This document shows positions 12,677-63,815 of a DNA stretch of 64,000 nt, piece by piece. The DNA is from Squalus acanthias. Lineage: Eukaryota. The stretch covers positions 110,486,001 through 110,550,000 of the forward strand of contig CM059431.1 in the NCBI GenBank assembly GCA_030390025.1, in the 5' to 3' direction. The notes beneath the pieces are model-generated. The model worked only from the letters and a program-made list of their open reading frames with translations. It was not told the DNA's origin and did not search any database. The translations under genes and the position numbers were made by a program. Each line of letters starts with the position of its first letter. Position 1 is the first letter of the stretch.

Positions 12677-12820
12677 TCAAAAGCAAAATACTGAGCGGGG
12701 GCTGGAAATCTGAAATAAAAAAACAGAAAATGCCGGGAAACGTTCAGCAGGTCAGGCAGCATCTGTGGAGAGAGAGAAACAGAGTTAACGTTTCAGGTCG
12801 ATGACCTTTGGTCAGGACCT
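12677..12820 (-). mobile_element. Penelope-like terminal fragment (family P1) with degenerate hammerhead motif
   Basis: Same sequence as 19851-20047, 38396-38538 and 63498-63640. Minus strand reads CTGACCA-AAGGTC ATC GACCT-GAAACGTTAACT. Confidence 0.6.
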
Positions 12821-19505: not shown

Positions 19506-19850
19506 ATGGGACTTAGTTGAGCAGCTTCCGTTTGCAACTGGAGTGACAAAGAATAGATAACGGGACAATTGGTAATCGATAATGGGAAGAGGGCATCTTT
19601 TCCTGGCAGTCTAGTGTAGTCTATGCCTGCTTTTGCGACTGACCCAATGGAGGAGTGAGGTTGAGCCCAGAATTAACATGTTGTTCGCTACCTTTGGATG
19701 AGAACCTGCTGGATCCTTCTACCATTCCTCAATTAATAAAAATCTTTCTGACTTCTAATCTTGCCATTCTTCTTTTCTTGTGCTTGAGTGAGCATATCAT
19801 TTTTTTTTTTATTACTGTCCAATTTCACAGGCCGGAATTTTAACTTTGGA

Positions 19851-20047
19851 ACAACAGCAGAAAATGCTGGAAACACTCAGCGGATCAGGCAGCATCGAGG
19901 AGAGAGAAACAGAGTCAACGTTTCGGGTCGAGGACCCTTCGTCAGAAGGGTTTCTCTCTCCTCGATGCTGCCTGACCCGCTGCGTGTTTCCAGCATTTTC
20001 TGTTGTTATTTCAGATTTCCAGCATTCGCAGTATTTTGCTATTGTGC
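19851..20047. mobile_element. Inverted (hairpin) Penelope-like insertion, family P1, with hammerhead core
   Basis: Long inverted repeat. Flanks ATTTTAACTTTGGA / ATTTTTACTTTTGA resemble a diverged ~14-bp TSD. Confidence 0.7.
19913..19947 (-). ncRNA. Minimal type I hammerhead-ribozyme motif (core intact, stem I disrupted)
   Basis: Minus strand reads CTGACGA-A-GGGTC(CTC)GACCC-GAA-ACGT-T: conserved CUGANGA and GAAA boxes, 5-bp stem II, palindromic ACGT in place of stem III. Confidence 0.6.
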
Positions 20048-20207
20048 ATTTTTACTTTTGAGTTGGGTCGGGTGCGTTACGGGCCACGTAGCGGTTCGTG
20101 AATGCGATGTCTTGATCAGCCTGCTCTTCAGAGTGACTTTAACGTAATGGCCCCAATTAAACCCAACCATGTGTGTTTCTCGGCCCTATTAAAGGGTGCG
20201 GGTCTGA

Positions 20208-20245
20208 TGACGTCATCAATGACTCATCCAGCGCCCATATATAAA
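20208..20245 (+). promoter_or_regulatory. Putative promoter of the Harbinger Myb-like gene (CRE, AP-1-like site, TATA)
   Basis: TGACGTCA 20208-20215, TGACTCA 20220-20226 and TATATAAA 20238-20245, ~90 bp before ATG 20335. The CRE is conserved in copy 2. Confidence 0.45.
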
Positions 20246-20334
20246 GCAGTCTTGCACACAACACATTTGAAGGTTGGTAAAGGAGTGTGGAAGGAGCATT
20301 GGAAAGGTTGGAGTTATTGGGCAAAGTGAAAAAT

Positions 20335-23300
20335 ATGAATTCCCAAAGGCAGAGGGCTGCACCCCGTTTTACAGATGCCCCGCTGCATATTCTGGTGGAG
20401 GCAGTACGAGCACGCAGGGAGGTCCTCTTCCCAGCAGATGGGCGCAGGAGACCACCCCAAGAGATCAAAAGGGCCTGGCTGGAAATAACAGAGGAGGTCA
20501 GCAGCAGGGAGGTCGTGAGGAGGACCTGGATCCAGTGCAGGAAGAGACTCAATGATCTGATGAGGTCAGGAAAGGTGAGTGCAATGCCACACTAACCTTC
20601 ATCCTGATGTGCCTGCCACCACATCCCCATCACTCTGCCTTCCCAAGCCCACTCCTGCACATCATTCCTCACACCAACATACTTTGCACGTCCACCCATC
20701 CCACTCTCTCTATGTACATACTCACATCCCCATCTGACTAACCACCCCTCACACTCACCCTGATCGTAATGCACTCATAACACCACAGAAGGAGGCCATT
20801 TGGCATTGGCGCCCCACTCCCTCATAGTCACCCTCTACAGATGTAGCCCATCCATTCCTTACTCTCATTCCATCACTCTCACTCAGATTTCTCTTCTTTC
20901 CCTCCTTGCAGGAATAAAGAGCCCACAACAACAGAGAGAGGGAGAGAACCGGAGGTGGCCCTCCAGTCTTCGTACACCTAACAGCAGCAGAGGAGGCGGC
21001 TCTGGAAATCTCGGGAGCTCGAGAGACACTGGTGATGGGAGGCGAGAGAGAGGGGGACATCCCAACAACCTGGTGACAGAATCACATCTCATAAAGCCAC
21101 ATGGCATAAAACTGTCATTCATAAGGTGACTGATGTCAGCAGCCAGTGAAATGTCATCATGTGCATAATGGTAACATTGCCCATTCTTATTATAACAGTT
21201 TTAATTCATCTCTTTACTCTCCCACAGGTCCATCAACTGCCCCGCCCACTGTCGAGCCAGAGGAGGAAGATGAATCCTCAGAGGAACCTCCAATCTCTGA
21301 GGGTGCAGCGTCACCAGACCCAAGCGCACACCTCGGTGGGTCCTTTGCGCCATAGAGTAGAGTTGTCACCTGGTGTCTCACAATTCACAAGTGAGCAAGA
21401 GCAGGTGGTGTTGACAGGGACAGCAGTGGAGACTCCTCGCCGGAGGGCACAGGACGCTCCAAGCTCTGTTGAGCTGCATGCAGATGCTGAACCTCGAGGG
21501 CCATCGAGAAAGAGGGTGATCTTGGAGTGGCAGCAACAATTGCATGAGGCTCTGGCATCTTTTGTAGCTGTGATGTCTGCAAATGTTCAGAGAATGGAGG
21601 AGTCCCTCTCCAACATGAGCACCACCATGTTGCAGGTGATGGCGATGATGTGCTCTTCCATGGAAAGGAAGTCCTTCTTGACTTGTCTGCAGCCTTTGAC
21701 ATGGTTGATCACTCCATCCTTCTCCAACACCTCTCCCCCGTCGTCCAGCTGGGTGGGACTGCACTCGCCTGGTTCCATTCTTATCTATCTAATCATAGCC
21801 AGAGAATCACCTGGAATGGCTTCTCTTCCCGCATTGTTACCTTTGGTGTCCCCCAAGGATCTATCCTGGGCCCCCCTCCTATTTCTCATCTACATGCTGC
21901 CCCTTGGCGACGTCATCCAAAAACACAGCGTCAGTTTCCACATGTACGCTGATGACACCCAGCTCTACCTCACTACCACTTCTCTCGACCCCTCCACGGT
22001 CTCTAAATTGTCAGGCTGCTTGTCCGACATCCAGTTCTGGATGAGCAGAAATTTTCTGCAATGAAATATTGAGAAGACCAAAACCAATGTTTTTGGTCCC
22101 CGCCACAAACTCCGTTCCCTAGCCATTGACTCCATCCCTCTCCCTAACATCTGTCTGAGGCTGAACCACACTGTTCGCAACCTTGGTGTTATATTTGACC
22201 CTGAAATGAGCTTCCGACCACATATCCGCGGCATAACTAAGACCGCCTATTTCCACCTCCGTAACATCGCCCGTCTCCGCCCTTGCCTCCGCTCATCCGC
22301 TGCTGAAACCCTCATCCATGCCTTTGTTACCTCTAGACTTGACTATTCCAATGCACTCCTGGCTGGCCTCCCACATTCTACCCTACGTAAACTTGAGGTC
22401 ATCCAAAACCCAGTTGCCTGTGTCCTAACTCGCACCAAGTCCTGTTCGCCCATCACTCCTGTGCTTGTTGTCCTACATTGGCTCTCAGTTAAGCAACGCC
22501 TCGATTTCAAAATTCTCATCCTTGTTTTCAAATCCCTCCATGGTTTCGCCCCTCCCTATCCAGCCCCACAACCCCCCGAGATATCTGCGCTCCTCTAATT
22601 CTGCCTTCTTGAGCATCCCTGATTATAATCGCTCAACCATTGGTAGCCGTGCCTTCTATCGCCTAGGCCCTAAGCTCTGGAATTCCCCACCTAAACCTCT
22701 CTGCCTCGCTACCTCTCTTTCCTCCTTTAAGACGCTCCTTAAAACCTACCTCTTTGACCAAGCTTTTGGTCACCTGCCCTAATTTCTCCTTATGTGGCTC
22801 AGTGTCAAATTTTTTGTCTTATAAAACTCCTGTGAAGTGGCTTGGGACATTTTACTATGTTAAAGGCGCTATATAAATACAAATTGCTGTTGTTGTTGGA
22901 TGGCCACCTGCATGGAGCAGCAAATGCACCACTCACATGAGCACATGTTAGCTGTGGACAAAGGACGGCAGGCGCTCATAGACATCCTCTCAAGGAGGGA
23001 TGTGAACATTGACTTGGGCCGTCATCGCCCCACTGCTGTGCAGCAAGGTGCTCGCCAGCTCCTTGCCAGCAGGGAAGTGCGGGTTGCCCATGAGAGGGAT
23101 GATGGTGAGAGGGAACATGGAAGTGGGGGCTCTTCTCAAAGCGCTCCCACTTCTCCCCCATTGCCACCCCCTCAGTCAGAGCCCCACATGCTGCCTCGGA
23201 TCGCGATGGCCGAGTCTGCCCCTGCACAGTCGCAGGAGGAGCAGACTATGGCGGACCCATCACAGGCTCCAAAACCCAGAGGACTTCCCCCAAAAAGTGT

Positions 23301-23407
23301 CTGACGAGTCGCAGCAGGGAAGTGAGCAGCCTGCAACTACCTCTGCTGAAGTCACAGGGGTTGCACCTCGTAGAAGCACTCGCAAAAGAAAAATGACACA
23401 TAAGTAG
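20335..23407 (+). pseudogene. Harbinger Myb/SANT-like (trihelix) gene, 3 exons (20335-20574, 20912-21072, 21228-23407); exon 3 split by L2
   Basis: Exon 1 encodes RAAPRFTD...KRAWLEITEEVSS...RRTWIQCRKRLNDL. Splice sites AAG/GTGAGT, TTGCAG/, CTG/GTGACA, CCACAG/. Stop in exon 2 and frameshifts. Basic C-terminus RRSTRKRK. Confidence 0.85.
21670..22897 (+). mobile_element. 5'-truncated L2-clade LINE
   Basis: RT motifs [55 protein letters not shown]. (GTT)n tail. Flanked by GGA/GGA. Confidence 0.92.
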
Positions 23408-23669
23408 ATGCACAAGAGTAAGCACATGGGTTTATCAAAAAATGTTAGTGCTAAGTTTCAGTTGTTTTGATTGAACACATAAATGTTTTTCTTTGCACCA
23501 CTTTCTGGTCTTGTCCATTTTTACCTCAAACCTTGCAAGTGGCTTTGTCACTTGGAGTGAATGGTGACACATTATTTAACCTCGAGTATTGGGGCTTTGG
23601 GCGAGAGGAATGGATTGGTCATTGTAGGAATTCTTTATGGTGTTGTTGGAGGTGGGGGGGAACATAGCG

Positions 23670-23687
23670 TTAGGGTTAGGGTTAGGG
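23670..23687 (+). repeat. (TTAGGG)3 telomere-type repeat
   Basis: Exact TTAGGGTTAGGGTTAGGG. Confidence 0.9.
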
Positions 23688-23708
23688 ATGTGTCTGCATC
23701 AGAGCAAG

Positions 23709-26700
23709 TTAAGTAAATCTGGCCATGATGAGGCCATCCAGAGCCTCCCGGGCAGCAATGCGCGCCGCTGCTGGTGCCATCTCCACCTCAAGTTCCTCCT
23801 CCTCATCTTCCTCCTCCTCCTCTTCCTCTGAAGAGGCTGTGTGCTGTACACCATGCTCTCCCTGCAGTTCCAATCCTCGCTGCTGCACTATGTTATGCAG
23901 CACGCAGCAGGCGACAATGATTCTGGAGACCCTGGCTGGTGCGTACTGAAGGGCTCCTCCAGATCTGTCAAGGCATCTGAAGCGCATCTTTTAGCCTGCC
24001 TATTGCTTGTTCTATGGCACATCTGGTGGAGTTGTGGCTCTCATTATAACGCTCCTGGGCCTCAGTACTTGGCGTCCTCAGGGGTATCATAAGCCACGTC
24101 TTCAGTGGATAGCCCTTGTCTCCAAGCAGCCAGCCAGTAAGTGTGTTTGGAGGTGCAAAGAGCTGAGGAAGGGTGGACTGGTGCAGCATGAAAGAGTCAT
24201 GACAGCTGCCAGGGAATCTGGCGCACACATGCATGATGCTCTTTTTTGGTTGCAGATGAGCTGCACATTGAGGGAGTGGAAGCTTTTGCGGCTCACAAAC
24301 ACTCCTGGGTGATGATGAGGTGCCTTCATGGCCACATGTGTGCTGTCGCTGACGCCCTGCACCTGTGGGAAGTCAGCCAGAGCTACAAAGCCGAGCACCC
24401 GCTCAGTAACATAAGAACATAAGAAATAGGAGCAGGAGTAGGCCATTTGGCCCCTCGAGCCTGCTCCGCCATTCAATAAGATCATGGCTGATCTGATCTT
24501 GGTCTCAACTCCACTTCCCTGCCCGCTCCCCATAACCCTTGACTCCCTTATCGTTCAAAAATCTGTCCATCTCCACCTTAAATATATTCAATGACCCAGC
24601 CTCCACAGCTCTCTGGGGTAGAGAATTCCACAGATTCACGACCCTCTGAGAGAAGAAATTCCTCCTCATCTCCGTTTTAAATGGGCGACCACTATTCTGA
24701 AACTATGCCCCCTAGTTCTAGATTCTCCCACGAGGGGAAACATCCTCTCTGCATCTACCTTGTCAAGCCCCCTAAGCATTTTATATGTTTCAATAAGATT
24801 ACCTCTCATTCTTCTAAACTCCAATGAGTATAGGCCCAACCTGCTCAACCTTTCTTCATAAGACAATCCCTCCATCTCAGGAATCAAACTAGTGAACGTT
24901 CTCTGAACTGTCTCCAAGACCAAAACTGTACGCAGTACTCCAGGTGTGGTCTCACCAATATCTTGTACAGTTGTAACAGGACTTCCCTACTTTTATACTC
25001 CATCCCTCTTGCAACAAAGGCCAACATTCCATTTGCCTTCCTAATTACTTGCTGTACCTGCATGCTAACTTTTTGTGTTTCATGTACAAGGACCCCCAGA
25101 TCCCTCTGTACTGCAGCATTTTGTAATCTCTCTCCATTTAAATAATAATTTGCTTTTTTATTTTTCCTACCAAAGTGGATAACCTCACATTTTCCCACAT
25201 TATACTCCATCTGCCAAATTTTTACCCACTCACTTAGCCTATCTATATCCCTTTGGAGATTCTTTGTGTCCTCCTTACAATTTGCTTTCCCTCCTATCTT
25301 TGTATCATCAGCAAATTTGGCTACATTACACTTGGTCCCTTCATGCAAGTCATTAATATAGATTGTAAATAGTTGAGGCCCCAGCACCGATCCCTGTGGC
25401 ACCCCACTAGTTACAGTTTGCCAACCACAAAATTATCCATGTATCCCGACTCACTGTTTTCTGTTAGTTAGCCAATCCTCTATCCATGCTAATATATTAC
25501 CCCCAACACCTTGAGTTCTTATCTTGTGCAGTAACCTTTTATGTGGCACCTTATCGAATGCCTTCTGGAAATCCAAATACATTACATCTACTGGTTCCCC
25601 TTTATCCACACTGCTCATTACATCCTCAAAGAACTCCAGCAAATTTGTCAAACATGATTTCCCTTTCATAAAACCATGCTGACTCTGCTTGACTGTATTA
25701 TGATTTTCTAAATGTCCTGCTACTACTTCCTTAATAATAGACTCCAGCATTTTCCCAATGACAGATGTTAGGCTAACTGGTCTATAGTTTCCTGCTTTCT
25801 CTCTCCCTCCTTTCTTAAATAGGGGTATTACATTTGCGGTTTTCCAATCCGCTGGGACCTCTCCATAATCCAGGGAATTTTGGTAGATTGCAACCAATGC
25901 ATCCACTATCTCTGCAGCCACTTCTTTTAAGATCCTAGGATGCAGGCCATCAGGTCCAGGTGACTTGTCCACCTTTAGTCCCATTATTTTACCGAGTATT
26001 TTTTCTCTAGTGATAGTGATTGTTTTAAGTTGCCCCCTCCCTATAGCCTCTTGATTATCTATTATTGGGATGCTTTTAGTGTCTTCTACCGTGAAGACCG
26101 ATATAAAATATTTTTTCAAAGTCTTTGCCTTTTCCCTGTTTCCCATTATTAATTCCCAAGTCTCATCCTCTGAGGGACCAATGTTTACTTTAGCTCCTCT
26201 CTTCCTTTTTATATACCTGTAGAAGCTCTTACTGTTTGTTTTTATATTTCTTGCTACTGGCTTCATCAGTGGCAAAGTTGATATAATTGGTTGACTTGTG
26301 AAACATGGTATCGGTCACCTGGGTGATGCATCTGTGGGTGGCCGACTGCGAGATCCCGCAAATGTCCGCTGCAGATCCCTGGAAGGAGCCTGAGGCAAAG
26401 AAGTTGAGAGCTGTGATGACTTTGACAGCCACTGGTAAGGTGTGTTCACCCGCTCCTCTGGGCAGCAGGTCTTGTTCCAGCAAACTATAAATGTCTGCGA
26501 CAACCTGGCACTAATAGCCTGAGCCTCCTTTGGCACTGCTGCTCAGTCATGTTGAGGAAGCTCATCCTCTGTCTCTATACCCTGTGTTGGGGGTATTGCC
26601 TCTAGCGAGCTGCAGCCCTGTGGCGCCCCCCCCCCCCTCTCTCCTGTGGAGCATCAGGTCACTGAGGAGAAGGCTGCTGTTGTGGTTGCTGCAGCTGCTG

Positions 26701-26772
26701 GTGTTGTTGGTGGTTGGGCTCATCTTGGTCCAATTCTGAGGACCAAGGTGAGACAGTATAAGCGGCACCAAT
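23709..26772 (-). pseudogene. Harbinger DDE transposase (HARBI1-like), copy 1, split by CR1
   Basis: Motifs [79 protein letters not shown]. Frameshifts present; start inferred from copy 2. Confidence 0.9.
24411..26255 (-). mobile_element. 5'-truncated CR1 family A inserted in the Harbinger transposase
   Basis: ORFs 25451..26275, 24884..25402 and 24666..24923 encode CR1 RT. Transposase sequence GATGAAG...GTTACTGAGCGG resumes on both sides. Confidence 0.93.
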
Positions 26773-27627
26773 GCTGACATAGTAGATGGCAGGTAAAGTG
26801 GAGATCAGAGGGCCAATCCCTCAATGTTGTGATAGTGAGTAGCAATGTGGTGAGAGTGGCTTCCGAGGTTTCAGAAATGACCTGCAAACTGCAGACGCAC
26901 AAATCTGTGGACAAAATGGAGTGAGCAAGAGCCTTTCCATGAGACAAGTAATGAGATGTAATGTTGAAGTATTTATGTGCTTTTCCCAGCTGTCAATGAA
27001 TGAACTCGCCAATGTCCACTGAGCTTCTGCCTCCCTTTCACAGGCGAGGTACCCGACCTCCGTGAATCCCATGCTCCTGCGGTAAAACTCAAAAGCTGGC
27101 CTTAAAATCCCTCTTAAGGGTCTCTCAACAAGCATTTAATCATTTCAATGAGGTCGCCCGCCTCTGCCAATCGGGTCCGTGTTGCGCTTTCAAAGCCTCC
27201 CGAGTTGAATGTGCGAGGCGGCGGGATGACGACGGGTTCCCGACGCGCTTGCTATTTCCAGCATTTTTACTGCCGACCCGCCCCCAAATCCGCAAGCACG
27301 GCAACGGGAAAATTCTGGCCACAGAGTCTTGAATCTTACATTTACTGATTACCTTTATCAAATCAGGTTGACATTTTGATGCCTGAAAACTGAATGGAAC
27401 TGAAACGTGAGTAGGATCCAGGTGGCTAGTGGTTTAAGCTACAAGACATGATATAAACACAAAATGCACAACATTTATCGATCCAACGCCTTGTAGTGGA
27501 ATCATTTATGCATTTGAAACAAATTCTGTGCTTTTGTTCCTCTGAAATAGAATTAAGCACTCGTTGCTTGAGAATTTACAGTGCATAAGGAACATTTTTA
27601 ATTAAATGTTTATATTGCTCTGTAAAT

Positions 27628-28430
27628 TATTTTTTTTAATTCACTTATGGGATCTGGGCGTCGCTGGCAAGGCCAGCATTTATTGCCCATCCCAAGTTGC
27701 CCTCGAGAAGATGGTGGTGAGCCGTCTTCTTGAACCGCTGCAGTCCGTGTGGTGAAGGTACTCCCACAGTGCTGTTAGGGAGGGAGATGCAGGATTTTGA
27801 CCCAGTGACGATGAAGGATCGGCGATATACTTCTAAGTCAGGATGGTGTGTGACTTGGAGGGGAACTTGGAGGTGGTGGTGTTCCCATGCGCCTGCTGCC
27901 CTTGTCCTTCTAGGTGGAAGAGGTCGCGGGTTTGGGAGGTGCTGCCGAAGAAGCTGCAGGGCATCTTGTAGATGGTACACACTGCAGCCACAGTACGCCG
28001 GTGGTGGATGGGGTGCCAATCAAATGGGCTGCTTTGTCCTGGATGGTGTCGAGCTTCTTGAGTGTTGTTGCAGCTGCACTCATCCAGGCAAGTGGAGAGT
28101 ATTCCATCACACTCCTTACTTGTGCCTTGTAGATGGTGGAAAGGCTTTGGGGAGTCAGGAGGTGAGACACTTGCCGCAGAATACCTAGCCTCCGACCTGC
28201 TCTTGTTGCCACAGTATTTATGTGGCTGGTCCAATTAAGTTTCTGGTCAATGGTGACCCCCCAGGATGTTGATGGTGGGGGATTCGGTGATGGTAATGCC
28301 GTTGAATGTCAAGGGGAGGTGGTTAGACTCTCGCTTGTTGGGGATAGTCATTGCCTGGCACTTGTGTGGCGCGAATGTTACTTGCCCCTTATCAGCCCAA
28401 GCCTGAACGTCGTCCAGGTCTTGTTGCAAC
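27628..28430 (-). mobile_element. LINE family B 3' fragment
   Basis: Reverse complement of ~8790-9615 (QQDLDDVQAWADK, IYKAQVRSVMEY). Confidence 0.9.
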
Positions 28431-29168: not shown

Positions 29169-31601
29169 TGGTTTAAACTAATTTGGCAGGGGGATGGGCA
29201 CCAGGATGTCACATTAGAAAGGAGAAACAAAGTGCACAAAGGATTGGGAGAGACAGATAGCACTAGAGTAAGGAATAGTAAGGTATTAAGTGGGGTCAGA
29301 CTAAGAGAGAATACAAGGAGGTCTAAGATAGGTTTACAGTGCATGTGTGTAAACGCACGAAGCGTGGCAAATAAGGTTGGTGAGCTGCAGGCGCAAATAG
29401 CCACATGGGAATATGATGTTGTGGCGATAACAGAGACCTGGCTCAAAAAAGGGCAGGATTGGGTATTAAATATTCCTGGATATAAGGTGTTCAGGAAAGA
29501 TAGGGAAGGAAAGAAAGTTGGTGGGGTGGCAGTATTGGTTAAGGAGAATGTTACAGTGCTGGAGAGAGAGGATGTCCTGGAGGAGTCAAGGACAGAATCT
29601 ATTTGGTTAGAGTTAAGAAATAAGAGGTGCCATTACACTACTAGGTGTATTCTATAGGCCACCAACTAGTGGGAAGGATATAGAGGAGCAAATTTGCAGG
29701 GAAATTACAGAGAGGTGCAAGAACTATAGATTAGTGATAATGGGGGACTTTACCTATCCTAATAGAGACTGGGATAATAATAGTGTAAAGGGCAGAGAGG
29801 GGGAAGAATTTCTGAAGTGTGTTCAGGAGAACTTTCTTGATCAGTACGTTTCTAGCCCAACGAGGAAGGAGGCATTGCTGGATCTGGTTCTGGGGAATGA
29901 GGTGGGTCAAGTGGAGCAAGTGTCAGTGGGGGAACATTTAGGGAACAGTGATCACAGTATCATAAGGTTTAGATTAGCTATGAAAAAGGACAGGGAGCAA
30001 TCTAGAGTAAAAATACTTAATTGAAGGAAGGCCAATTTCAGTGGGTTGAGAACGGATCTGACCTGGGTAAATTGGAATCAAAGATTGGCAGGCAAAATTG
30101 TAATCGAACAATGGGATGCCTTTAAAGAGGAGATGGTTCATGTACAGCTGAGGTACATTCCCAGAAGGGGGAAAGGTAGGGCAACTAAAGTCAGAGCTCC
30201 CTGGATGACAAAAGAGATAGAGAGTAAGGTGAAGCAGAAAAAGAGCGTGTATAACAGATGTCAGGTTGAGAATACAAGTGAGAATAAGGCTGAATATAGA
30301 AAGTTCAGAGGGGAAGTGAAAAAGAAAATAAGAGGGGCAAAGAGAGAGTATGAGAATAGATTGGCAGCTAACATAAAAGGGAATTCAAAAGTCTTCTATA
30401 GGCATATAATTAGTAAACGGGTAGTAAGACGAGGGGTGGTGCTGATTATGGACCAAAATGGAGACCTACACATAGAGGCAGAGGGTGTGGCTGAGGTGCT
30501 AAATGAGTATTTTGCATCTGTCTTCACCAAGGAAGAAGATGCTGCCAAAGTCATAGTGAAAGAGGAGGTCGTGGAGATACTGGATGGAATAAAAATTGAT
30601 AAAGAGGAGGTACTAGAAAGGCTGGCTGTACTTAAAGTAGATAAGTCATCAGAACTGGATGGGATGCATCCTAGGATGCTGAGGGAAGTTAAGGTGGAAA
30701 TCGCGGAGGTACTGGCCATAATCTTCCAATCCTTTTTAGATATAGGGGTGGTGCCAGAGGACTGGAGAATTGCAAATGTTACACCCTTGTTCAAAAAAGG
30801 GTGTAAGGATAAACGCAGCAACTAAACGCCAGTCAGTTTAACCTCGGTAGTGGGGAAGCTTTTAGAAACAATAATCACGAACAAAATTAACGGTCAGTTG
30901 GACAAGTGTGGATTAATTAAAGAAAGCCAGCACGGATTTGTTAACGGCAAATCGTGTTTAACTAACTTGATTGAGTTTTTTGATGAGTTAACAGAGAGGG
31001 TTGATGAGGGCAATGCAGTTGACGTGGTGTACATGAACTTCCAAAAGGCGTTTGATAAAGTGCCACATAATAGGCTTGCCAGCAAAGTTGAAGCCCATGG
31101 AATAAAAGGAACAGTGCCAGCATGGATACGAAATTGGCTAAGTGACAGGAAACAGAGAGTAGCAGTGAACGGTTGTTTTTCGGACTGGAGGAAGGTATAC
31201 AGTGGTGTTCCCCAAGGGTCGGTACTAGGACCACTGCTTTTCTTGATATAAATTATGACTTGGACTTGGGTGTACAGGGCACTATTTCAAAATTTGCAGA
31301 TGACACAAAACTTGGAAGTATAGTGAACAGTGAGGGGATTAGTGATAGACTTTAAGAAGACATAAACAGGCTGGTGAAATGGGCGGACACGTGGCAGATG
31401 AAATTTAACGCAGAGAAGTGTGAAGTGATACATTTTGGTAGGAAGAATGAGGAGAGGCAATATAAACTAAAGGGTACAATTCTAAAGGGGGTGCATGAAC
31501 AGAGAGACCTGGGGGTATATGTGCACAAATCGTTGAAGGTGGCACGGCAGGTTGAGAAAGCGGTTAAAAAAGCATACGGGATCCTGGGCTTCATAAATAG
31601 A

Positions 31602-31815
31602 TGTGAGAAGTCGCACAACACCAGGTTATAGTCCAACAGCTTTATTTGAAATCATAAGCTTTCGGAGCGCTGCTCCTTCATCAGGTGACTTCACCTGACC
31701 AAGGAGCAGCGCCCCGAAAGCTTGTGATTTCAAATAAAGCTGTTGGACTATAACCTGGTGTTGTGTGACTTCTCACATTTGTCCACCCCAGTCCAACACC
31801 GGCATCTCCACATCA
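31602..31815. mobile_element. Inverted Penelope-like insertion, family P2, with two opposed hammerhead motifs
   Basis: ~88-bp inverted arms plus tail TTTGTCCACCCCAGTCCAACACCGGCATCTCCACATCA. TSD TTCATAAATAGA / TTCATAAAAAGA. Confidence 0.75.
31652..31688 (-). ncRNA. Minimal type I hammerhead-ribozyme motif
   Basis: Minus strand reads TCAC-CTGATGA-A-GGAGC(AGC)GCTCC-GAA-AGCT-T-ATGA. The plus-strand mirror copy (31691-31727) has CTGACCA and stem I TCAC/GTGA. Confidence 0.65.
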
Positions 31816-32442
31816 TTCATAAAAAGAGGCATAGATTACAAAAGCAAGGAAGTTATGATGAACCTTTATAAAACACTGGTTCGGCCTCAACTGGAGTATT
31901 GTGTCCAATTCTGGGCACCGCACTTTAGGAAGGATGTGAAGGCCTTAGAGAGGGTGCAGAAAAGATTTACGAGAATGGTTCCAGGGATGAGGGACTTCAG
32001 TTACGTGGATAGACTGGAGAAGCTGGGGTTGTTCTCCTTAGAGCAGAGAAGGTTGAGAGGAGATTTGATAGAGGTGTTCAAAATCATGATGGGTCTAGAC
32101 AGAGTAGATAGAGAGAAACTGCTCCCATTGGTGGAAGGTCAAGAACCAGAGGACACAGATTTAAGGTGATTGGCAGAAGAACCAAAGGCGGCATGAGGAA
32201 AAGCTTTTTTACTCAGAGTGTGGTTAGGATCTGGAATGCACTGCCTGAGAGGGTGCTGGAGGCAGACTCAAGCGTGGTTTTCAAAAGGGAGTTGGATAAG
32301 TACCTGAAGGAAAAAATTTGGAGGGCTACGGGGAAAGGGCGGGTGAGTGGGACTAGCTGAAGTGCTCTTGCAGAGAGCCGGCACGGGCTCGATGGGCCAA
32401 ATGGCCTCCTTCTGCGCTGTAACCATTCTATGATTCTATGAT

Positions 32443-34080: not shown

Positions 34081-35016
34081 CAAAAGCTAAATACTGCGGA
34101 TGCTGGAAATCTGAAATAAAAACAGAAAAGACGAAAGGTCTTCAACCTGAAACGTTGGGGGTGATTTTATCAATGGGGAGGTGATGGAGGCGGGAAAGCT
34201 GCTTGTCGGGTTTTAGTCCCGCCTCCATCGACGTCTGGCCAACCCACGCTATTTTTCCTTGATTGGCCTTGTTAAGCCCGCCTAGCAGGCTGAGCCGGCC
34301 AATTAAGGGAATGCCGGTGACAAATGACGTCAGCTCTGTGAAGCTGTCAAACACTGACAATCTGTCTTCTAAGTTGAGACCTTGGACACAGGCTCACTTA
34401 GAAAGCTTTCCTGAGCAGAAAGCAGAAGGCTGCTGCATTTAAGAATGCAACGGTCATTCTGCTTTCTCTGCCGGTGAGATGAGGCAGCTCCGCAGCCTAA
34501 AGGGATGAAGCCTGGAGGAAGAAGCAAAGGTAAGTAATCTTATTAAAACACTTTAGACTCACCTCACACACTTACCTCTCCACACTTGCACTCATCACTC
34601 ACCTGCACACCGGACATTTCAGCCCCTCCGACCCCCGCAGACCCACGGCTCGCCTCGCTGACCCTGGCGAGGTTCGGAGCCGTCGGGAAGCCCACACTTT
34701 AGGTCTCAAAATAGGGATTAGCCAAAAAACTGCCTGTTAACTACCTGTTAACAGGCAGTTAATTGGCACTAATACCCTTCCCGCCTCGAGGAGACAGGAC
34801 CCAGCGCGGGTCGGGTACCTGCCTCCTGGGAAGATGGCACGGAGGCGGGTTGGGGGCAGGATGGGTACCCGCTCCCAGATTCTGCCATTTTTCTGGCAGT
34901 CCCGCCTCCATACCCGCCTCCCCAGGGCTGGGAAAATCGCCCCCTACAACTCTGTTCCTCTCTCCACAGATGCTGCCTGACCTGCTGAGTATATCCATCA
35001 TTTTCTGTTTTTATTT
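34081..35016. mobile_element. Inverted Penelope-like P1 insertion split by a MITE
   Basis: P1 sequence at 34081-34156 (ends GACGAAAGGTCTTCAACCTGAAACGTT) resumes at ~34948 (AACTCTGTTCCTCTCTCCACAGATGCTGCC). Confidence 0.65.
34157..34944. mobile_element. Harbinger-like MITE, same family as 40250-41079
   Basis: TIR GGGGGTGATTTT / AAAATCGCCCCC. Colinear similarity to 40250-41079. Confidence 0.7.
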
Positions 35017-38395: not shown

Positions 38396-38538
38396 AACAA
38401 AAGCAAAGTACGGCAGATGCTGGAAAGCTGAAACTGAAATAAACACAAAAAAATGCTGGAAACACTCAGCAGGTCAGGTAACATCTGTGGGAGAGAGGAA
38501 CAGAGTTAATGTTTCAGGTCGATGACCTTTCGTCAGAA
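38396..38538 (-). mobile_element. Penelope-like P1 terminal fragment with hammerhead motif
   Basis: Minus strand reads TT-CTGACGA-AAGGTC(ATC)GACCT-GAAACATTAACT. Confidence 0.65.
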
Positions 38539-48058: not shown

Positions 48059-48144
48059 GGACATAATGGGATGACAGCATATTAGAGTCTGAAATGGGCA
48101 GAATGAATACTGAACCTGTAATGAGTATTTTCTGCCCTACATTA

Positions 48145-50470
48145 TTTTTAAAAAATTTGTTCCTCGAATCTGGGCGTCACTGGCAAGGCCAGCATTTATT
48201 ACCCATCCCTAATTGCCCTTGAGAAGGTGGTGATGAGCCGCCTTCTTGAACCGCTGCAGTCCGTGTGGTGAAGGTACTCCCACAGTGCTGTTAGGGAGGG
48301 AGTTCCAGGATTTTGACCGAGCAACGATGAAGGATCGGCGGTATACTTCCAAGTCAGGATGGTGTGTGACTTGGAGGGGAACTTGGAGGTGATGGTGTTC
48401 CCATGCGCCTGCTGCCCTTGTCCTTCTAGGTAGTGGAGGTCGCGGGTTTGGGAGGTGCTGTCAAAGAAGCCTTGGCCAGTTGCAGCAGTGCATCTTGTAC
48501 AATGGTACACACTGCAGCCACGGTACGCCGGTGGTGGAGAGAGTGAATGTTTAAGGTGGTGGATGGGGTGCCAATCAAGTGGGTTGCTTTGTCCAGGATG
48601 GTGTTGAGCTTCTTGAGTGTTGTTGGAACTGCACTTATCCAGGCAAGTGAAGAGTAATCCATCACACTCCTGACTTATGTCTTGTAGATGGTGGAAAGGC
48701 TTTGGGGAGTCAGGAGGTGAGACACTCGCCGCAGAACACTCAGCCTCTGAGCTGCTCTTGTAGCCACAGTATTTATGTGGCTGGTCCAGTTAAGTTTCTG
48801 GTCAATGGTGACCCCCCCGCCCCCACCCCCCCCACCCCCCCCAGGATGTTGATGTTGGGGGATTTGGCGATGGTAATGCCGTTGAATGTCAAAGGCGGCA
48901 GTTAGACTCTCTCTTGTTGCAGATAGTCATTGCCTGGCACTTGTATGGCACGAATATTATTTGCCACTTATCAGCCCAAGCCTGACTGTCATTCAGGTTT
49001 TGTTGCATGCGAGCATAGACTGCTTCATTATCTGAGGAGTTGCAAATGTAACTGAACACTGTGCAGTCATCAGTGAACATCCCCACTTCTGATCTTATGA
49101 TGGAGGGAAGGTCATTGATGAAGCAGCTGAAGGACACTGCCCTGAGGAACTCCTGCAGCAATATCCTGGGGATGAGATGATTGGCCTCCAACAACCACAG
49201 CCATCTTCTTTTGTGCTAGGTATGACTCCAGAGAGTTTCCCCCTGATTTCCATTGACTTCAATTTTACTAGGGTTTCTTGATGCCAAACTCGGTCAAATA
49301 CTGCCTTGATGTCAAGGGCAGTCACTCTCACCTCACCTCTGGAATTCAGCTCTTTTGTCCATGCTTGGACCAAGGCTGTAATAAGGTCGGGAGCTGAGTG
49401 GTCCTGGTGGAACCCAAACTGAGCATCGGTGAGCAGGTAATTGGTGAGTAAGTGCTGCTTGATAGCACTGTTGACGACACCTTCCATCACTCTGCTGATG
49501 ATTGAGTAGACTGATGGGGCGGTAACTGGCTGGATTGGATCTGTCCTGCTTTTTGTGGACAGGACATACCTGGGTCATTTTCCACATTGTCGGATAGATG
49601 CCAGTGTTGTAGCTGTACTGGAACAGCTCGGCTAGAGGCGCGGCTAGTTCTGGAGCACAAGTCTTCAGCACGATAGCCGGGATGTTGTCGGGGCCTATAG
49701 CCTTTGCTGTATCCAGTGCGCTCAGCTGTTTCTTGATATCACGTGGAGTGAATCGAATTGGCTGAAGACTGGCTTCTGTGATGGTGGAGACCTCAGGAGG
49801 AGGCTGATATGGATCATCCACTCGGCACTTCTGGCTGAAGATGGTTGCAAACGCTTCAGCCTTGTCTTTTGCACTCACATGCTGGGCTCCACCATCATTG
49901 AGGATGGGGATATTCATGGAGCCTCCTCCTCCCGTTAGTTGTTTAATTGTCCACCACCATTCGCGACTGGATGTGGCAGGACTGCAGAGCTTTGATCTGA
50001 TCCGTTGGTTGTGGGATCGCTTAGCTCTGTCTGTAGCATGCTGCTTCCGCTGTTTAGCATGCATGTAGTCCTGTGTTGCAGCTTCCCCAGGTTGGCACCT
50101 CATTTTTAGGTACGCTTGGTGCTGCTCCTGACATGCTCTTCTACACTCCTCATTGAACCAGGGTTGGTCCCCTGGCTTGATGGTGATGTTAGAATGAGGA
50201 ATATGCCGGGCCATGAGGTTGCAGATTGTGGTGGAATACAATTCTGCTGCTGATGGCCCACAGATGCCCAATTTTGAGCTGCTAGATCTGTTCTGAATCT
50301 ATTCCATTTAGCACGGTGGTAGTGCCACACAACACGATGGAGGGTGTCCTCAGTGTGAAGACTGGACTTTGTCTCCACAATGACTGTGCGGTGGTCACTG
50401 CTACCAATGCTGTCATGGACAGATGCATCTGCGACAGGTAGATTGGTGAGGACGAGGTCAAGTAGGTTTT
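48145..50470 (-). mobile_element. LINE family B, 5'-truncated within the endonuclease region
   Basis: ORFs 49333..50271, 49095..49490 and 48889..49194: DQPWFN, GPDNIP, YRPISLL, LDIKAVFDRVWH, MFTDD. Tail as at ~9600. Confidence 0.92.
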
Positions 50471-55872: not shown

Positions 55873-57282
55873 AAAACCAATCCATCCCAATTTTTAAAAT
55901 CATCTTTCGGAGTGAAGTTTAGGAGCTGCTAAATCCAGACAGTTCTGTGTGCTTTTCTCGTATTAAGTTCCAAAGGAGGTCAGAGATTCATGTAGCCTGA
56001 AGTGGGGCTTTAATAGCCCGAGTTTCTCAAGTAATGGTTAACTGCTTTTGAACGTGTACATGTAAGGGCTGGAGCTCCGGGCACTCGCACTATCTGGCAG
56101 AAAGTGCCACAGGCAGATCAAGCTGCAGCACAGCCGCGACTTGCAATATGCAAAATATATCAACTTTACGTGAGACCAACAAACTAACCTCCTGAAAAAA
56201 GGATTTGAATCTTGTCCCTGCAAGTTCACGAGTATGATTTAATCCCGCAGTTATGCTGAAGCATTTTCAGACCAGTTGCATTGTTCCATGTAAACACTCT
56301 GACGGCTTACCCAAGTGAAAGTTTGCCGAAACCATTTGAGATGGACTAAAACATAAAATTCTGACCCCAGAATAAGGCTGCACAATAGCCTAATCAAGCA
56401 TTTGCTTGTAAAATACTAACTCAGCTGAAGCACAAAATCTACCCTCGTTATGAGTTCAGAAAACAATTTTTAAAATGCCACAAGGTGCATCGTCATCAGA
56501 TTGTGGGTTATCACATGATGTGTTTCTGAGGCGGTGGCACGGACACATTCCAGTTTTCAGTCTCAGCTCGGGGTCGCCCACTCTGATTGGGTGTATTCCT
56601 GGAGGTTTCATCACATGACCTCCCTCCTCCAACTGCCCCGCCCCCCCCCCACCCCCCCTGCCATTGGTTGCCCGACACGTCCATCGTCGCGGCACACCGC
56701 CTCTCTACACCAATTGGAAAGCGAACAGACTCTTCGGCCGGAATTTTCTGGGGTCCGTGTGGGCACGATCGGCGGCGGGTCGGGTGGGAAATTTGAAATA
56801 TCTTGCAGCGGGTCAGGAACCCGCCGTCATCCCGCCCCCATGCGTCTTTCCCTCGGGCGCGTTTGCCGGCGAGGCAGTGACTCAAACGGCAGAGGCGGGC
56901 GAGCTCATTTAAATCATTATTAGGTACTTGTCAGACTCGAGAGTCTTTTTAACCCTACCTTTCAAATTTCATCGGATGACCACGGGAATCACGCAGCTCA
57001 GGAATCACATCTGTCAACCTAATGTGAAGGCTGAGTGGCCATTGATTCATCTGATTAGTGCACAGCATGGAAAGTACAATATAAACTCCCACCTCACAGC
57101 TGATCACTTTCCTCAGGCAGATGCTGTTGCTGACTGCATTGCTAGCACAGATTTAGCTTTTTAGAGGCTGCAAGTGTTTCCAGCAACGTCGCCATCCAGT
57201 CTCACCTCATTGTTAGAACCCATCACATCATTGACAGATTGCTTCTGTCATCTCTACTTGACCTGCCATCTATTCCATCAGC

Positions 57283-58541
57283 ATGGGTGCTGTTTACACT
57301 CTCTCACCTTGGTCCTCTGAATCGGACCACGATGAGCCCCAACACCAGCAGCACCAGGCACACCAGCAGCACCAACAATAACACCACCAACCTTCTCCTC
57401 AACCACCTGATGCTGCACAGGACAGAGGGCATCAGCGCAGGGCTGCACCGTGCCGGAGGCGGTACCCCCAACACAGGGTATATAGGCAGAGGATGAGCTT
57501 CCTCAACATGACTGAGCAGCAGTGCCAAAGGAGGCTCAGGCTATCGCGCCAGGTCGTCACAGACATTTGCAGATTGCTGGAACAAGACCTGCAGCCCAGA
57601 GGAAGGGGTGGATACTCCTTACCAGTGGCTGTCAAACTCACCCTTGTCCTTAACTTCTTCGCCTCAATCTCTTTGCAGGGATCTGCAGCAGACATTTGCA
57701 GCATCTCGCAGTCAGCCGCCCACAGATGCATCACACAGATCACTGATGCCCTGTTTGACAAGTCAGCCAATTATATCAACTTTGCCACTGATGAAGGCAA
57801 TGTTACTGAGCGGGTGCTCGGCTTTGCCGCTCTGACTGGCTTCCCATGGGTGCAGGGCTGGCTGGTTGGCTTCCCACAGGCACACATTGCCATCAGGGCA
57901 CCCAATCATAACCCAGGAGTGTTTGTCAACCGCAAGGGCTTCCATTCCCTCAATGTGCAGCTCATCTGCAACCAGTCTACAACCATAGGAAGATCATCAT
58001 GCATGTGTGCGTCAAATTCCCTGGCAGCTGTCATGACTCTTTCGTCCTGCACCAGTCCACCCTCCCTCAGCTCTTCGCTCCTCCAAACAGACTTTCCAGC
58101 TGGTTGCTTGGAGACAAGGGCTATCCACTGGAGATGTGGCTCATGACACCCTTGAGGAGGCCAAGTACTGAGGCCCAGGAGGGATATAATGAAAGCCACA
58201 TTTCCACTAGATGTGTCATAGAGCAGACAATAGGCATGCTGAAAATGTGCTTCAGATGCCTTGACAGATCTGGAGGAGCCCTTCAGTACGCACCAGCCAG
58301 GGTCACCAGAATCGTCGTGGTCTGCTGCACCCCGCACAACATAGCGCAGCAGCGAGGATTAGCGCTGCATGAGGAGCAAGGCTCTGAACGCACAGCCTCT
58401 TCAGAGGAGGAGGAGGAGCATCAGCTGGAAGATGAGGTGAAGGAGGAGCAGGAGGAACCTGAGGTCCAGGTCCCACCAGCACCCGAGCACATTGCTGCCT
58501 GTGAGGCTAGGGATGGGCACATCATGGCCAGATTTACTTAA
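57283..58541 (+). pseudogene. Harbinger DDE transposase (HARBI1-like), copy 2
   Basis: ATG 57283 is in frame with ORF 57493, with one internal TAA and a frameshift near 57975. Motifs [49 protein letters not shown] and an acidic tail. The first catalytic Asp region is disrupted. Confidence 0.92.
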
Positions 58542-58602
58542 CTTTATGCATTACACCCATATGGCTGTCACATGCTGCGCCAGGTTGGCTACCCTTGTGA
58601 AT

Positions 58603-60397
58603 CTACTTCTGTTTCATCTTTCTCTTACGCGTGCTTCAACGAGGTGCTACCCCTGTAGAGGCAGCCTGCTCACTTCCCTGCTGCGACTGCTTAGATGCTT
58701 TTGGCGGACGTCCTCTGGGTTTTGCAGGGGCAGACTCGGCCATCGCAATCCAAGGAGGCATTTGGGGCTCTGACTGAGGGGGTGGCAATGGGGGAGAAGT
58801 ATGAGCACTTGGAGAAGAGCCCCCTCTTGCATGTCCCCTCTCGCCATCATCCCTCTCATGGGCCACCAGCACTTCCCTGCTAACAAGGAGCTGGAGAGCA
58901 CCTTGCTGCACATCAGTGGAGCCACGTCTATGTTGACATCCCTCCTAGAGAGGAAGTCTATGAGCCTCTGCTATCTATTCCCATAGACAACATGTGCTCC
59001 TGCGAGTGACGCATTAGCTGCTCCATGCAGGTGACCATCCTATCCATGGAAGAGCCGACAGTCGCTATCGCCTGCGACACAGTGGTGCTCATGTTGGAGA
59101 TGGACTCCTCCATTCTCTGAACATTTGCAGACATTGCGCTTGCAAAACCAGTCAAAGCCTCCTGCACTTCTTGCTGCACCTCCAGGATCGCCCTCTTTCT
59201 GGATGGCCCCCGAGGCTCAGCGTCTGCATGCAGCTCAGCAGCGCTGGGAGCATCCTGCGCCCTCCGGCGAGGAGTCTCCACTGCCGTCCCTGTCTCCACC
59301 ATCTGCTGTTGCTCACTTGTGACTTGTGAGACACCAGGTGACAACACTACTCTATCTCACGTTGCACCCACCGAGGTGTGAGTTTCTGCGCTGGTGCTGG
59401 GTGCGCTTATGTCTGGTGATGGTGCGCCCTCAGAGGCTGGAGGCTTCTCTGAGGAGTCGTCTTCCTCTTCCTCCTGGACGAGAGGGTGGGCTCTTGATGG
59501 ATCTGTGGGAGTGTAAAGAGGTGAGTTAGATATGCCATGTGAAGAATGGGGACAGATACCATTATGCACATGATAACCATTCAGTGGCTGCTGACATCAA
59601 TGCCCATATGAGTGACTGATGTATGCCATGTAGCTGTATGAGATGTAATTCTATCACCAGGTTGCTGAGATGTCCCCCTCTCTCCATCTCCCACCTCCAG
59701 CTGCTCAGCCACCCTTGAGACTTCCAAGGCAGCCTCTTCTGCTGATGTTAGGGTGGCCAATGATGGCGTTCCATCTCTGGTTCTCTCCCTCTCCCTCTTA
59801 TTGTGGGCTCTCTTTTCCTGCAAGGAGGGAAAGAAGAGAAGGTTGAGTGAGAGTGATGGATTGAGTGTAAGGAATAGATGGGTTACATCTTTAGAGGGAG
59901 ACTATGATGGAGTGGGGTGCCAAAGCCAAGTGGCCTCCTTGTGTGTTGTTAGTTGTTATGATTGCATTAGGAGGAGGGTGAGTGTGAGGGGTGGCTAGTC
60001 AGATGGGGATGTGATAATGTAGATAGAGAGGGATGGGTGGACGTGCAAGGTATGTTGGTGTGAGTAAGGATGTGCAGGATTCGGTTTGGGAAGGCAGAGT
60101 GATGGGGATATGATGAGAGGCACAGCAGGATGAAGGTGAGTGCGGTTTTGTACTCACCTTTCCAGATCTAATGAGATCATTGAAATGTTTCCGGCACTGC
60201 ACCCAGGTCCTCCTGACAACATCCCTGCTGTTGACCTTCTCTGCAATTTGCAGCCAGGCTCTTTTGGTCTCCTGGGGAGGTCTCTTCCACCCATTAGAAG
60301 GAAAGAGGACCTCTCTGCGTGCTCGGACTCTCTCCACAAACATATGGAGGGAGTCATCGGAGAACTTGGGTGCAGCCCTCTGTCTCAGTGCATTCAT
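58603..60397 (-). pseudogene. Harbinger Myb/SANT-like gene copy 2, 3 exons (60397-60158, 59817-59658, 59502-58603)
   Basis: Exon 1 MNALRQRAAPKFSDD...KRAWLQIAEKVNS...RRTWVQCRKHFNDLIRSGK. GT-AG introns at the same positions as copy 1. Stops and frameshifts in exon 3. Confidence 0.87.
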
Positions 60398-62394
60398 ATT
60401 TGGCACTCTTTCCAATAGTCCAATTGTGCAGTGTGCTGCCTGCACACTCCGAGATGAACCTTCAAATGCAATGTGGTTATGGCTCATTTAAATATCCCGG
60501 CTGAAAACGCGTCATCAATGACGTCATCAGACCCGCACCATTTAATAGGGCTGAGAGACGCGCAGGGCGGCCTTAAGAGGCGCCATTAACGCAAAGTCAA
60601 TCTGAGGAGCGGCATGGAATCAGGAACGGGGTCGCGACCCGCCACGGCGACCGCCCGCACCCGGCCCGCCCAGGTATGGAAAATTCCGGCCTTCGTTACC
60701 CGATTGGATGATTCTTGACTTCTCAGTCAAACAGCCTTGACTGCCATCTCCAATATTTTTATAACTAAAGAAACAAAAGTGCTCAATGAAAATGATAAAA
60801 ATGCACTTTTCTTTTTAATGACCCTATGATGTTTCTCCTGGGTTGCTCACAGCAGCGTCCTGGAGATTAATCGTTGATTCCTGGAGTCTCCTGGACAATC
60901 CTGGAGGGTTGGAAACACCAGCCTCAGCTCCCAGCACACTCCCTGCTTGCTAAAAGCAATGCAAGGTGCGATAGAGGCCACAGCAATGGCAGGGACATAG
61001 CAATGGAATGTCACATTTCTGTGTTGAAGCCTCAGGAAAGGCAAAAATTGAGAGGAAGGTTGGGCGTATTGAAATATTTTATTTTCCTTCACTGATTTCT
61101 CTTCCTTATTTCCATTCTTATTTCTCAACTCCTGAAGGTGATGACTTGCACTGAGGTATGATTTCCCTGGGCTAGTGGCCCTCCATTACTTCACTGAGCT
61201 GTTTATTAAACTGGTGCGACCTTGGATTATGACCCCCCCCCCCAGTGGGACAGGTATTTCAGGACTCACTAGATGGCTGTAAGGCGTAGAACACTGGCTG
61301 ATCTTTCCTCCTTCCTAGCCACAGGATTCTGAGGGCAATTCAGTGCTGCATTTCCCCTGCTTCTTCCCTCGACCATACTGCCATCCTAGCTGAGGATGGT
61401 TACCTCAATACAGCCCAGTGACTGAACCAGAACTGTTCCTACTCTGTCGGGTTCAGTGACTCACCGTTCATTCACTGTGAAAGTCTGTCGCAGATCATTT
61501 TTTTTTAAACTTTCTAAATTTAATAAGGCCAGTAGTTTTTTTTAAACAAGTAATAAATGAGGAATTTATCCTGATATAACCGATAACATTTTAGTGCCAC
61601 ACACATGCGGTATATTTTTGTGCACAGGCATATCTTAACAGCTAGGGATGTCATTCTTTCTGTCAGCTGATGTGCATGAAACTTAAACACTGATTCATAT
61701 ACAAGCTATTACTTTAAGTATAATCTGTGTATGTACATGAATTAAACGAGAGTGCATGTAGCCCAGTGGTGTAGTAATATCTAATGCGGTGAATATATCT
61801 TAGTGTTGATGTTAAGTAGTCCTATCTAAATGTCCAACTAATTTCATTGCATTTATTCAACAGAGCTTTGAGACAGTTTAGTTTTTACCTGCAGCTTATT
61901 TTCCATTCAAATGAATCCACTTCAAAAAACTAGTCCACAGTTTGAAGCTTAAGGAGACTGTGTTTCTTAGGCCTTCACTAACTATCTCTCAGTATTTAAA
62001 CTGAAAATTTGTTTTAGTTTCTGTACACTTTGCTTGTGTCAAAGAACAGAATAGTGTTTAATGTGGAGTGACTCTGTGAGGTAGATCGCACTGCTGCATC
62101 CTGTGGTAAAGCCACAGCGCCATCTGCTGTCCCTCAGCTACGTCGCTGCGACATGTAATACTGGACTCTGGCCTTTAAAAGAAAATACTTTCATTTTATA
62201 GAACACCTTAAAGCATCTCTTAAACATCTCAGGGCACTTCACCTACAATTTTGAAATGCAGTAACTATCGTCACACAGGCAACTGGCTGCCATTTTGTGC
62301 ATAGCAAGATTCCACAAACAACAACAATGTGCAGGACCATGAGATTTGAGTAGGGAGCAGAGTTGTTAGTTGAAGGAGGAGTTGTGATTGATTA

Positions 62395-63480: not shown

Positions 63481-63497
63481 TCCCAATGGCGCATTAC

Positions 63498-63815
63498 AAT
63501 AGCAAAATACTGCGGATGCTGGAAATCTGAACAACAACAGAAAATGCTGGAAACACTCAGTCAGTCAGGAAGCATCATGGAGAGAGAGAAACAGAGTCAA
63601 CGGTTCAGGTCGATGACCCTTCGCCAGAACTGGAAAAAGTGAGAGAAGTAACAGATTTTTAAGCAAGTGTAGGGGCAGGGAAAGGGAGGAGGGGAGGCAA
63701 GAACAAAAGGGAAGGTCTGTGATAGGATGGAAGGCAGGAGAGATTGACTGACAAAAGGGATGATGGTGCGAGGCAAAAGGAGATGGCAATGGGACAAGTT
63801 AAGAAATAAATTAAG
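63498..63815 (-). mobile_element. Penelope-like P1 3' fragment with mutated hammerhead motif
   Basis: P1 terminus, then AGTT-CTGGCGA-AGGGTC(ATC)GACCT-GAACCGTT-GACT on the minus strand, extended by a pyrimidine-rich segment. Confidence 0.6.

Follow-up and report, generated by a model that had tools for sequence, protein, structure and literature searches.

A decayed two-gene PIF/Harbinger transposon from a probably old, high-copy shark family in Squalus acanthias

The window analysed here is a stretch of 64,000 nucleotides from Squalus acanthias (assembly GCA_030390025.1, contig CM059431.1, positions 110,486,001 to 110,550,000 of the forward strand), and all positions below refer to it. Positions 56736–60691 hold a Harbinger element with perfect 13-bp terminal inverted repeats (56736–56748, plus strand; 60679–60691, minus strand) and the trinucleotide TTC on either side (56733–56735 and 60692–60694). 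Taken alone, the inverted repeats and TTC are weak evidence, because the window contains 2335 perfect 13-mer inverted pairs, 16 of which are also flanked by a 3-bp repeat. That the ends are genuine follows from a second copy of the family in the same window, which has equivalent ends, with one change per end, and its own TGT duplication; this also confirms the repeats and duplication reported in the first-pass annotation of this locus. The coding content between the ends makes them firm.

The left gene is an intronless DDE transposase pseudogene on the plus strand (57283–58541), with an ATG at 57283 and a stop codon at 58539–58541. Of the seven frames scanned, one matches the DDE_Tnp_4 profile with an E-value of 8.5e-26, above the curated cut-off, and a second lies under the cut-off (E 0.088). 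Lesions were mapped by frameshift-aware alignment to four shark homologues of 52–75% identity. Codon 33 is a premature stop (57379–57381), the first catalytic Asp motif is lost, with a local duplication near 57858–57880 in its place, and a frameshift lies near 57972–57990. The second Asp (58113–58115) and the Glu (58221–58223) are intact; the catalytic roles of the three acidic residues are those presumed for the family in general. As its sequence reads, the 56736–60691 copy cannot be the source of a working transposase. A spacer of 61 nt (58542–58602), ~240 nt shorter than that of the second copy, separates the stop codons of the two genes.

The partner is a Myb/SANT gene that runs convergently to the transposase gene on the minus strand and contains three exons separated by two GT-AG introns, both of which are retained in the second copy. 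Exon 1 (60158–60397; 80 codons, open in both copies) encodes a Myb/SANT trihelix domain and is followed by intron 1 (59818–60157; 340 nt, phase 0), exon 2 (59658–59817; 160 nt), intron 2 (59503–59657; 155 nt, phase 1, with equal length and ends in the second copy) and exon 3 (58603–59502). The last exon encodes an acidic linker, a heptad-like helix, a Pro-rich part with an AT-hook-like word and a basic end. The Myb_DNA-bind_5 profile matches one of the seven frames scanned (E 2e-10). The spliced product aligns at 47% identity over 418 residues with an open Heptranchias perlo protein (XP_067827223.1), and the alignment extends across the exon junctions and into the basic end. The profile matches and this alignment uphold the earlier prediction of a HARBI1-like DDE transposase convergent with a three-exon Myb-like gene.

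Exon 3 is also broken. It contains stops at 59359–59357 and 58638–58636, a frameshift near 58974, a further stop at 58947 on the aligned path, and gaps of 10, 15 and 45 nt relative to the second copy. The heptad-like stretch has a hydrophobic fraction of 0.58 at a/d positions (shuffle p 0.017); it lies downstream of the first stop, as does the basic end, while the acidic linker lies upstream. All three regions named in the first-pass annotation are therefore present, but the basic, NLS-like end is preceded by two in-frame stops and a frameshift. Similarly, the description of a complete two-gene transposon holds for the outline but not for the genes, neither of which is open; the lesions and the second copy had been missed. 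Since both genes carry disabling lesions, neither works.

Both subterminal regions are rich in CpG. The left region (56749–56935) contains five CCCGC/GCGGG words, and the right region (60398–60678), which includes the putative Myb promoter, contains a CRE-like octamer at 60519 that is common to both copies. The four 200-nt ends of the two copies contain 13 CCCGC/GCGGG words against a shuffle mean of 4.6, and none of 300 shuffles reaches 13 for this motif, which was picked after inspection of the sequence. These words are candidate binding sites for the Myb protein. The CpG observed/expected ratio is 1.06 and 1.03 in the element ends and 0.30 in the interior.

The second full-length copy (19830–27320, minus strand) is flanked by a TGT duplication. 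Without three nested insertions it measures 4211 nt and is 79% identical to the first copy (K2P 0.24). Both of its genes are broken: the transposase gene has no start codon, contains a LINE fragment with reverse transcriptase (24413–26258, minus strand; RVT_1 E 1.3e-15 and 3.9e-12) and is further disrupted by three stops and three frameshifts, and the Myb gene carries three frameshifts and one insertion. The latter, in exon 3, is probably a LINE fragment as well (21670–22897, plus strand), although its RVT_1 match (E 5.6e-4) falls short of the curated cut-off. A short, nearly palindromic repeat (19847–20052) lies just inside the right terminal repeat. The lesions differ between the two copies, and the one pair found at the same spot is of different kinds, which suggests that the ancestor had open frames. 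The non-coding ends of the two copies are only 65–66% alike, which indicates different subfamilies; the family is old and probably divided.

Between the copies, dN/dS is 0.46 for the transposase core (276 codons) and 0.37 for the Myb gene (331 codons), a pattern that selection on the ancestors and later neutral decay would produce. Values below 1, the open Myb exon 1 in both copies and the database labels of relatives ('HARBI1' and 'NAIF1-like') could also be taken to mean that the locus is a domesticated transposase–Myb gene pair like HARBI1 and NAIF1. We consider this extremely improbable: stops and frameshifts interrupt both genes, the terminal repeats and target-site duplication are intact, the family is very abundant, and the database names are automatic labels. 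Unless the lesions are assembly errors, they refute domestication at 56736–60691. HARBI1, NAIF1 and MSANTD1–4 descend from these two types of gene and are single-copy host genes dated to ~430–500 Mya (PMC9392472), whereas the shark element is bounded, repeated and broken.

The transposase finds its best matches in shark models that carry the label 'putative nuclease HARBI1' (18 matches among 304 candidates and 16 among 550), and the closest are models from Pristiophorus japonicus, with 67–72% identity for the best matches. In a quick IQ-TREE analysis of 39 rows, with SH-aLRT support only, both window copies and 11 P. japonicus models form one clade (SH-aLRT 100), within which the sawshark models have long end branches (0.25–0.67). 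This tree was built without P0014, P0017 and P0018 (long or fused), some redundant cluster members, and sequences of HARBI1, NAIF1, MSANTD1–4 and Repbase. A search with Myb exon 1 gave 50 matches, and all 22 that were looked up come from sharks or rays. With a related transposase as query, a sequence search of the PDB returned no match. The shark 'HARBI1' models and XP_067827223.1 are the closest sequences found, yet they are automatic annotations of what appear to be other transposon copies, and none represents a described family. Together with the domains, the shark protein matches and the tree support the PIF/Harbinger identity and elasmobranch origin proposed earlier. As a separate observation, two groups (A and B) of conserved transposase-like proteins from sharks look domesticated.

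Public data were surveyed with sampled words in 24 listed runs; 33–49% of the words are present in 16 of them (five organisms, five studies), and no run holds half. Public contigs of four runs (X4, X11, X18 and X21) were aligned to the stretch. In X4, 69,219 of 51.4 million records align, 47,352 of them less than 95% alike, and the summed contig depth is 2e5–7e5 on the gene bodies compared with 22–36 on the unique flanks. X11 contributes 84,488 records, with depths of 1.3e4–4.6e4 and 4–7, respectively. Contig depth on the element is thus ~10^4-fold above the flanks, and the records are mostly of 85–95% identity. Because contig depths summed in this way do not measure copy number, we limit the claim to a very abundant family. 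Run X18 was presumed to be RNA, but its contigs behave like DNA. In X21, 96 reads aligned, 95 of them only partly. Within the window and these runs, the suggested search for further copies yielded the second copy and a deep contig pile-up. A metagenome scan for more copies passed one of 60 stretches, on a 14-residue match with no DNA similarity, which was treated as chance.

At ~350 places the element differs from at least a quarter of the X4 depth. Among variant places in X4, 128 have A/T here and G/C in the family and 49 the reverse (p 2.5e-9); the corresponding counts in X11 are 141 and 85 (p 2.4e-4). The A/T excess over the family points to methyl-CpG decay after insertion. A Myb-only deletion derivative was considered, but its joints (57424–57434 to 58477–58480), although present in X4, X11 and X18, account for ~0.1% of local X4 depth and mark a minor form; no paper on 'Myb-Harbinger' elements was found in the literature search.

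Perfect terminal repeats and ends that keep their CpGs, in contrast to the interior, would fit a family that is still active, with intact master copies elsewhere supplying both proteins and moving other copies through such ends. Some contigs are also nearly identical to the element: 5,062 of the 69,219 X4 records are at least 99% alike, so that younger members may exist, although short contigs over conserved parts are an alternative source of these records. Present activity is nevertheless quite unlikely, given the 85–95% identity of most records, the ~350 divergent places, the three nested insertions accumulated in the second copy and the long end branches of the 11 sawshark relatives. Neither of the two window copies has two intact frames with all three catalytic residues. 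The 56736–60691 copy itself could at most be moved in trans, because its ends are still perfect. The first-pass annotation had proposed an active two-component system that can be reconstructed; activity fails for this copy, both of whose genes are broken, whereas a reconstruction that draws on many copies is plausible, given the different lesions of the window copies and the abundance of the family, with the reservation that the family is old and probably divided.

The element is inserted in another repeat. The flanking segments at 56570–56732 (start approximate) and 60695–60912 (end approximate) form the left and right parts of a host repeat; the left part shows raised depth, loose contig ends at 56571–56580 and joints that skip the whole element. 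Since contigs skip the entire element, the host repeat is unsplit at other sites, and the element split this unrelated, short, high-copy repeat on insertion. No further copy of the host repeat was found elsewhere in the 64-kb window.

Judged from its sequence, the element is supported as a member of the PIF/Harbinger superfamily (PHIS). It carries a DDE_Tnp_4-type gene (broken) and a Myb/SANT gene, it is an interspersed repeat, as seen from the second copy and the step in contig depth, both copies have 3-bp target-site duplications (TTC and TGT), and its short terminal inverted repeats start with A or G, which is the terminal-repeat criterion in PMC4482050 (Han et al. 2015). That paper divides PHIS into PIF/Harbinger in the narrow sense (TWA), NuwaI (CWG) and NuwaII (C|TNA|G). 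The shark element resembles these groups in its two genes with a Myb/SANT partner, its length of ~4 kb and terminal repeats that start with G, but TTC and TGT obey none of the duplication rules TWA, CWG and TNA published there. Neither copy has a TWA duplication, and neither has the CWG duplication of NuwaI and Harbinger3_DR-like elements. Of the NuwaII target, the C before the duplication, its initial T and the G after it are present at both sites, whereas the A is absent from both; the third duplication base is C or T here.

Both insertion sites share six identical bases on the left and a G on the right. Compared with the target consensus of Harbinger3_DR, the flanks agree at 6 of 12 and 7 of 12 positions (13 of 24 in total; p ~0.008 against the window background, from two sites only), which hints at non-canonical duplications in Harbinger3_DR-like flanks. 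The zebrafish element Harbinger3_DR (Sinzelle et al. 2008, as cited in PMC3016246, PMC2836001, PMC9392472 and PMC9179366) likewise has a DDE transposase and a Myb-like gene, short terminal repeats and a 3-bp duplication. The likeness seen is one of anatomy, with a hint of a similar target; the two differ in the duplication (CWG there, TTC or TGT here), and the 56736–60691 copy is dead. A zebrafish Harbinger has already been reconstructed.

Intron 1 of the Myb gene stands out against its neighbouring exons. It is 88% alike between the copies, above the exons on both sides, with differences in 39 of 333 columns compared with 95 of 400 in exons 1 and 2 (p 2.3e-5), and the two depth bins over it are ~2–14 times deeper than the adjoining exon bins in X4, X11 and X18. 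The intron-1 splice donor is predicted to form a hairpin (60128–60163, minus strand) by pairing with an antisense copy ~10 nt downstream. The fold has a z-score of −3.25 here (matched by 1 of 200 shuffles), and the same donor-masking stem is predicted in the second copy (z −1.76; 10 of 200 shuffles). These features would fit a Harbinger fossil in which intron 1 is a selected control element, with the hairpin hiding the donor and limiting the full-length Myb protein. We regard this as unlikely. In the two-copy comparison, intron 1 shows no better conservation than the transposase core (p 0.34) or exon 3 (p 0.08), so that exons 1 and 2 may instead stem from more distant subfamilies; such mosaic copies explain the conservation as well as selection does, which is why splice control is rated low. 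Moreover, the fold in the second copy is weak, only two sequences were compared, and the folding window was chosen after the stem had been seen. The excess of donor-like words on the other strand of intron 1 is within chance (18 and 45 of 300 shuffles), and the donor of intron 2 has no predicted hairpin (z −0.15 and −0.72).

A broader proposal is equally unlikely: that a shark Harbinger lineage was splice-controlled, with full-length Myb protein, transposase import and transposition confined to places where the hairpin opens, and also gave rise to a transposase gene that is specific to sharks and catalytically dead (group A). If true, selfish and tamed forms could be compared within one system. 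No description of splice control by a donor hairpin in PIF/Harbinger elements was found in the literature examined.

We conclude that the 56736–60691 element is, with a probability of about 0.92, a fixed and dead copy of a PIF/Harbinger transposon that was once autonomous and belonged to an old, high-copy family of sharks. If Harbinger3_DR and Ping/Pong are a guide, its ancestor would have encoded two proteins in a pair of convergent genes. Of these, the Myb/SANT protein would have bound the element ends and the transposase and brought the latter into the nucleus, and the DDE transposase would have excised the element and, with a 3-nt stagger, reinserted it at a palindromic site of loose preference, presumably C|TNN|G in this case (for the two-protein mechanism, see PMC2836001 and PMC9179366). 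After landing in the short repeat, the copy would have decayed with a CpG bias.

Among cartilaginous fish, no Harbinger was detected in the elephant shark, and a check of other species was called for (PMC9179366). In other reports, PIF-Harbinger is listed for the whale shark, Tourist/Harbinger elements are the commonest DNA transposons of the grey reef shark, and large Harbinger expansions are known in a newt; the background literature also included PMC8455134, PMC12498223, PMC5741667 and PMC8151067. Our literature search, whose scope excluded most subscription journals, Dfam and Repbase, found no description of a shark Harbinger family, although families of this sort may be named in the repeat tables that accompany the papers on the whale shark and the grey reef shark.

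As it stands, the element adds a further decayed family to a known superfamily, which had been reported for sharks before at superfamily level, and it matters little. It bears on the call in PMC9179366 for a check of other cartilaginous fish, and it supplies annotators with a clean gene model of a very abundant repeat, which pipelines mislabel HARBI1 or NAIF1. The possible intron-1 control and the domesticated shark transposases would be of more interest to transposon specialists than the element itself. Once reconstructed, it would follow Harbinger3_DR as the second such Harbinger of vertebrates, and its target core would be looser.

Public contigs aligned to the window include a recurring form with an internal deletion relative to copy 1 (the dead full-length Harbinger transposon at 56736–60691), in which 57424–57434 is joined to 58477–58480, so that the transposase core is lost and the Myb gene is kept. 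In X4, a public sequencing run, this joint accounts for about 0.1% of the local depth. An identical 11-nt AT-rich word occurs at 56904 and 60483, approximately 170–200 nt inward from each end of copy 1, and copy 2, the second dead family member (19830–27320, minus strand), has a near copy of this word in its left end. Neither copy has a canonical poly(A) signal in the spacer between the stop codons of its transposase and Myb genes. In copy 2 this spacer (23408–23710) contains a tandem run of three telomere-like hexamers, as well as roughly 240 nt that copy 1 lacks.

The repeat split by copy 1 (56570–56732 and 60695–60912) is short and high-copy, with inverted-repeat-like ends, and is probably a non-autonomous DNA transposon of a kind other than the Harbinger element. 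Another repeat of about 200 nt, located at 19847–20052, is nearly palindromic and has further matches at 12678–12818, 34948–35016, 38397–38538 and 63496–63630. The remainder of the window consists mostly of LINE fragments (1–2800, 7900–9600, 27600–28400, 29600–32200 and 48100–50300); an open frame of 697 codons at 568–2658 encodes a reverse transcriptase (RVT_1, E 2.4e-31).

Among the related database proteins, the transposase-like group A (P0004, P0005, P0098–P0100 and P0101–P0103; 398–408 aa) comes from seven shark species of three orders, shares 81–98% identity on short branches, and falls together with the Harbinger copies of the window in one larger clade (SH-aLRT support 96). The third catalytic Glu is replaced by Lys or Arg in every group A protein. 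Judged from these sequences, group A looks like a single domesticated, catalytically dead gene.

A set of Myb-like proteins (P0036, P0041, P0042, P0044, P0049 and P0051) is retained across rays and sharks, with 96–99% identity within three myliobatiform rays and 43–65% over the wider range. The Myb-like member found in the whale shark and the zebra shark is not on a contig equal in size to that of the group A gene. In both catsharks, one member of the set and the group A gene are located on equal-sized contigs, which suggests that the two probably share a chromosome.

Group B (P0024, P0025 and P0105–P0107), which comprises transposase-like proteins of 378–381 aa from four sharks and one sawfish, shares 87–97% identity and forms one clade (support 100). 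Group B is likely a second domesticated gene besides group A.
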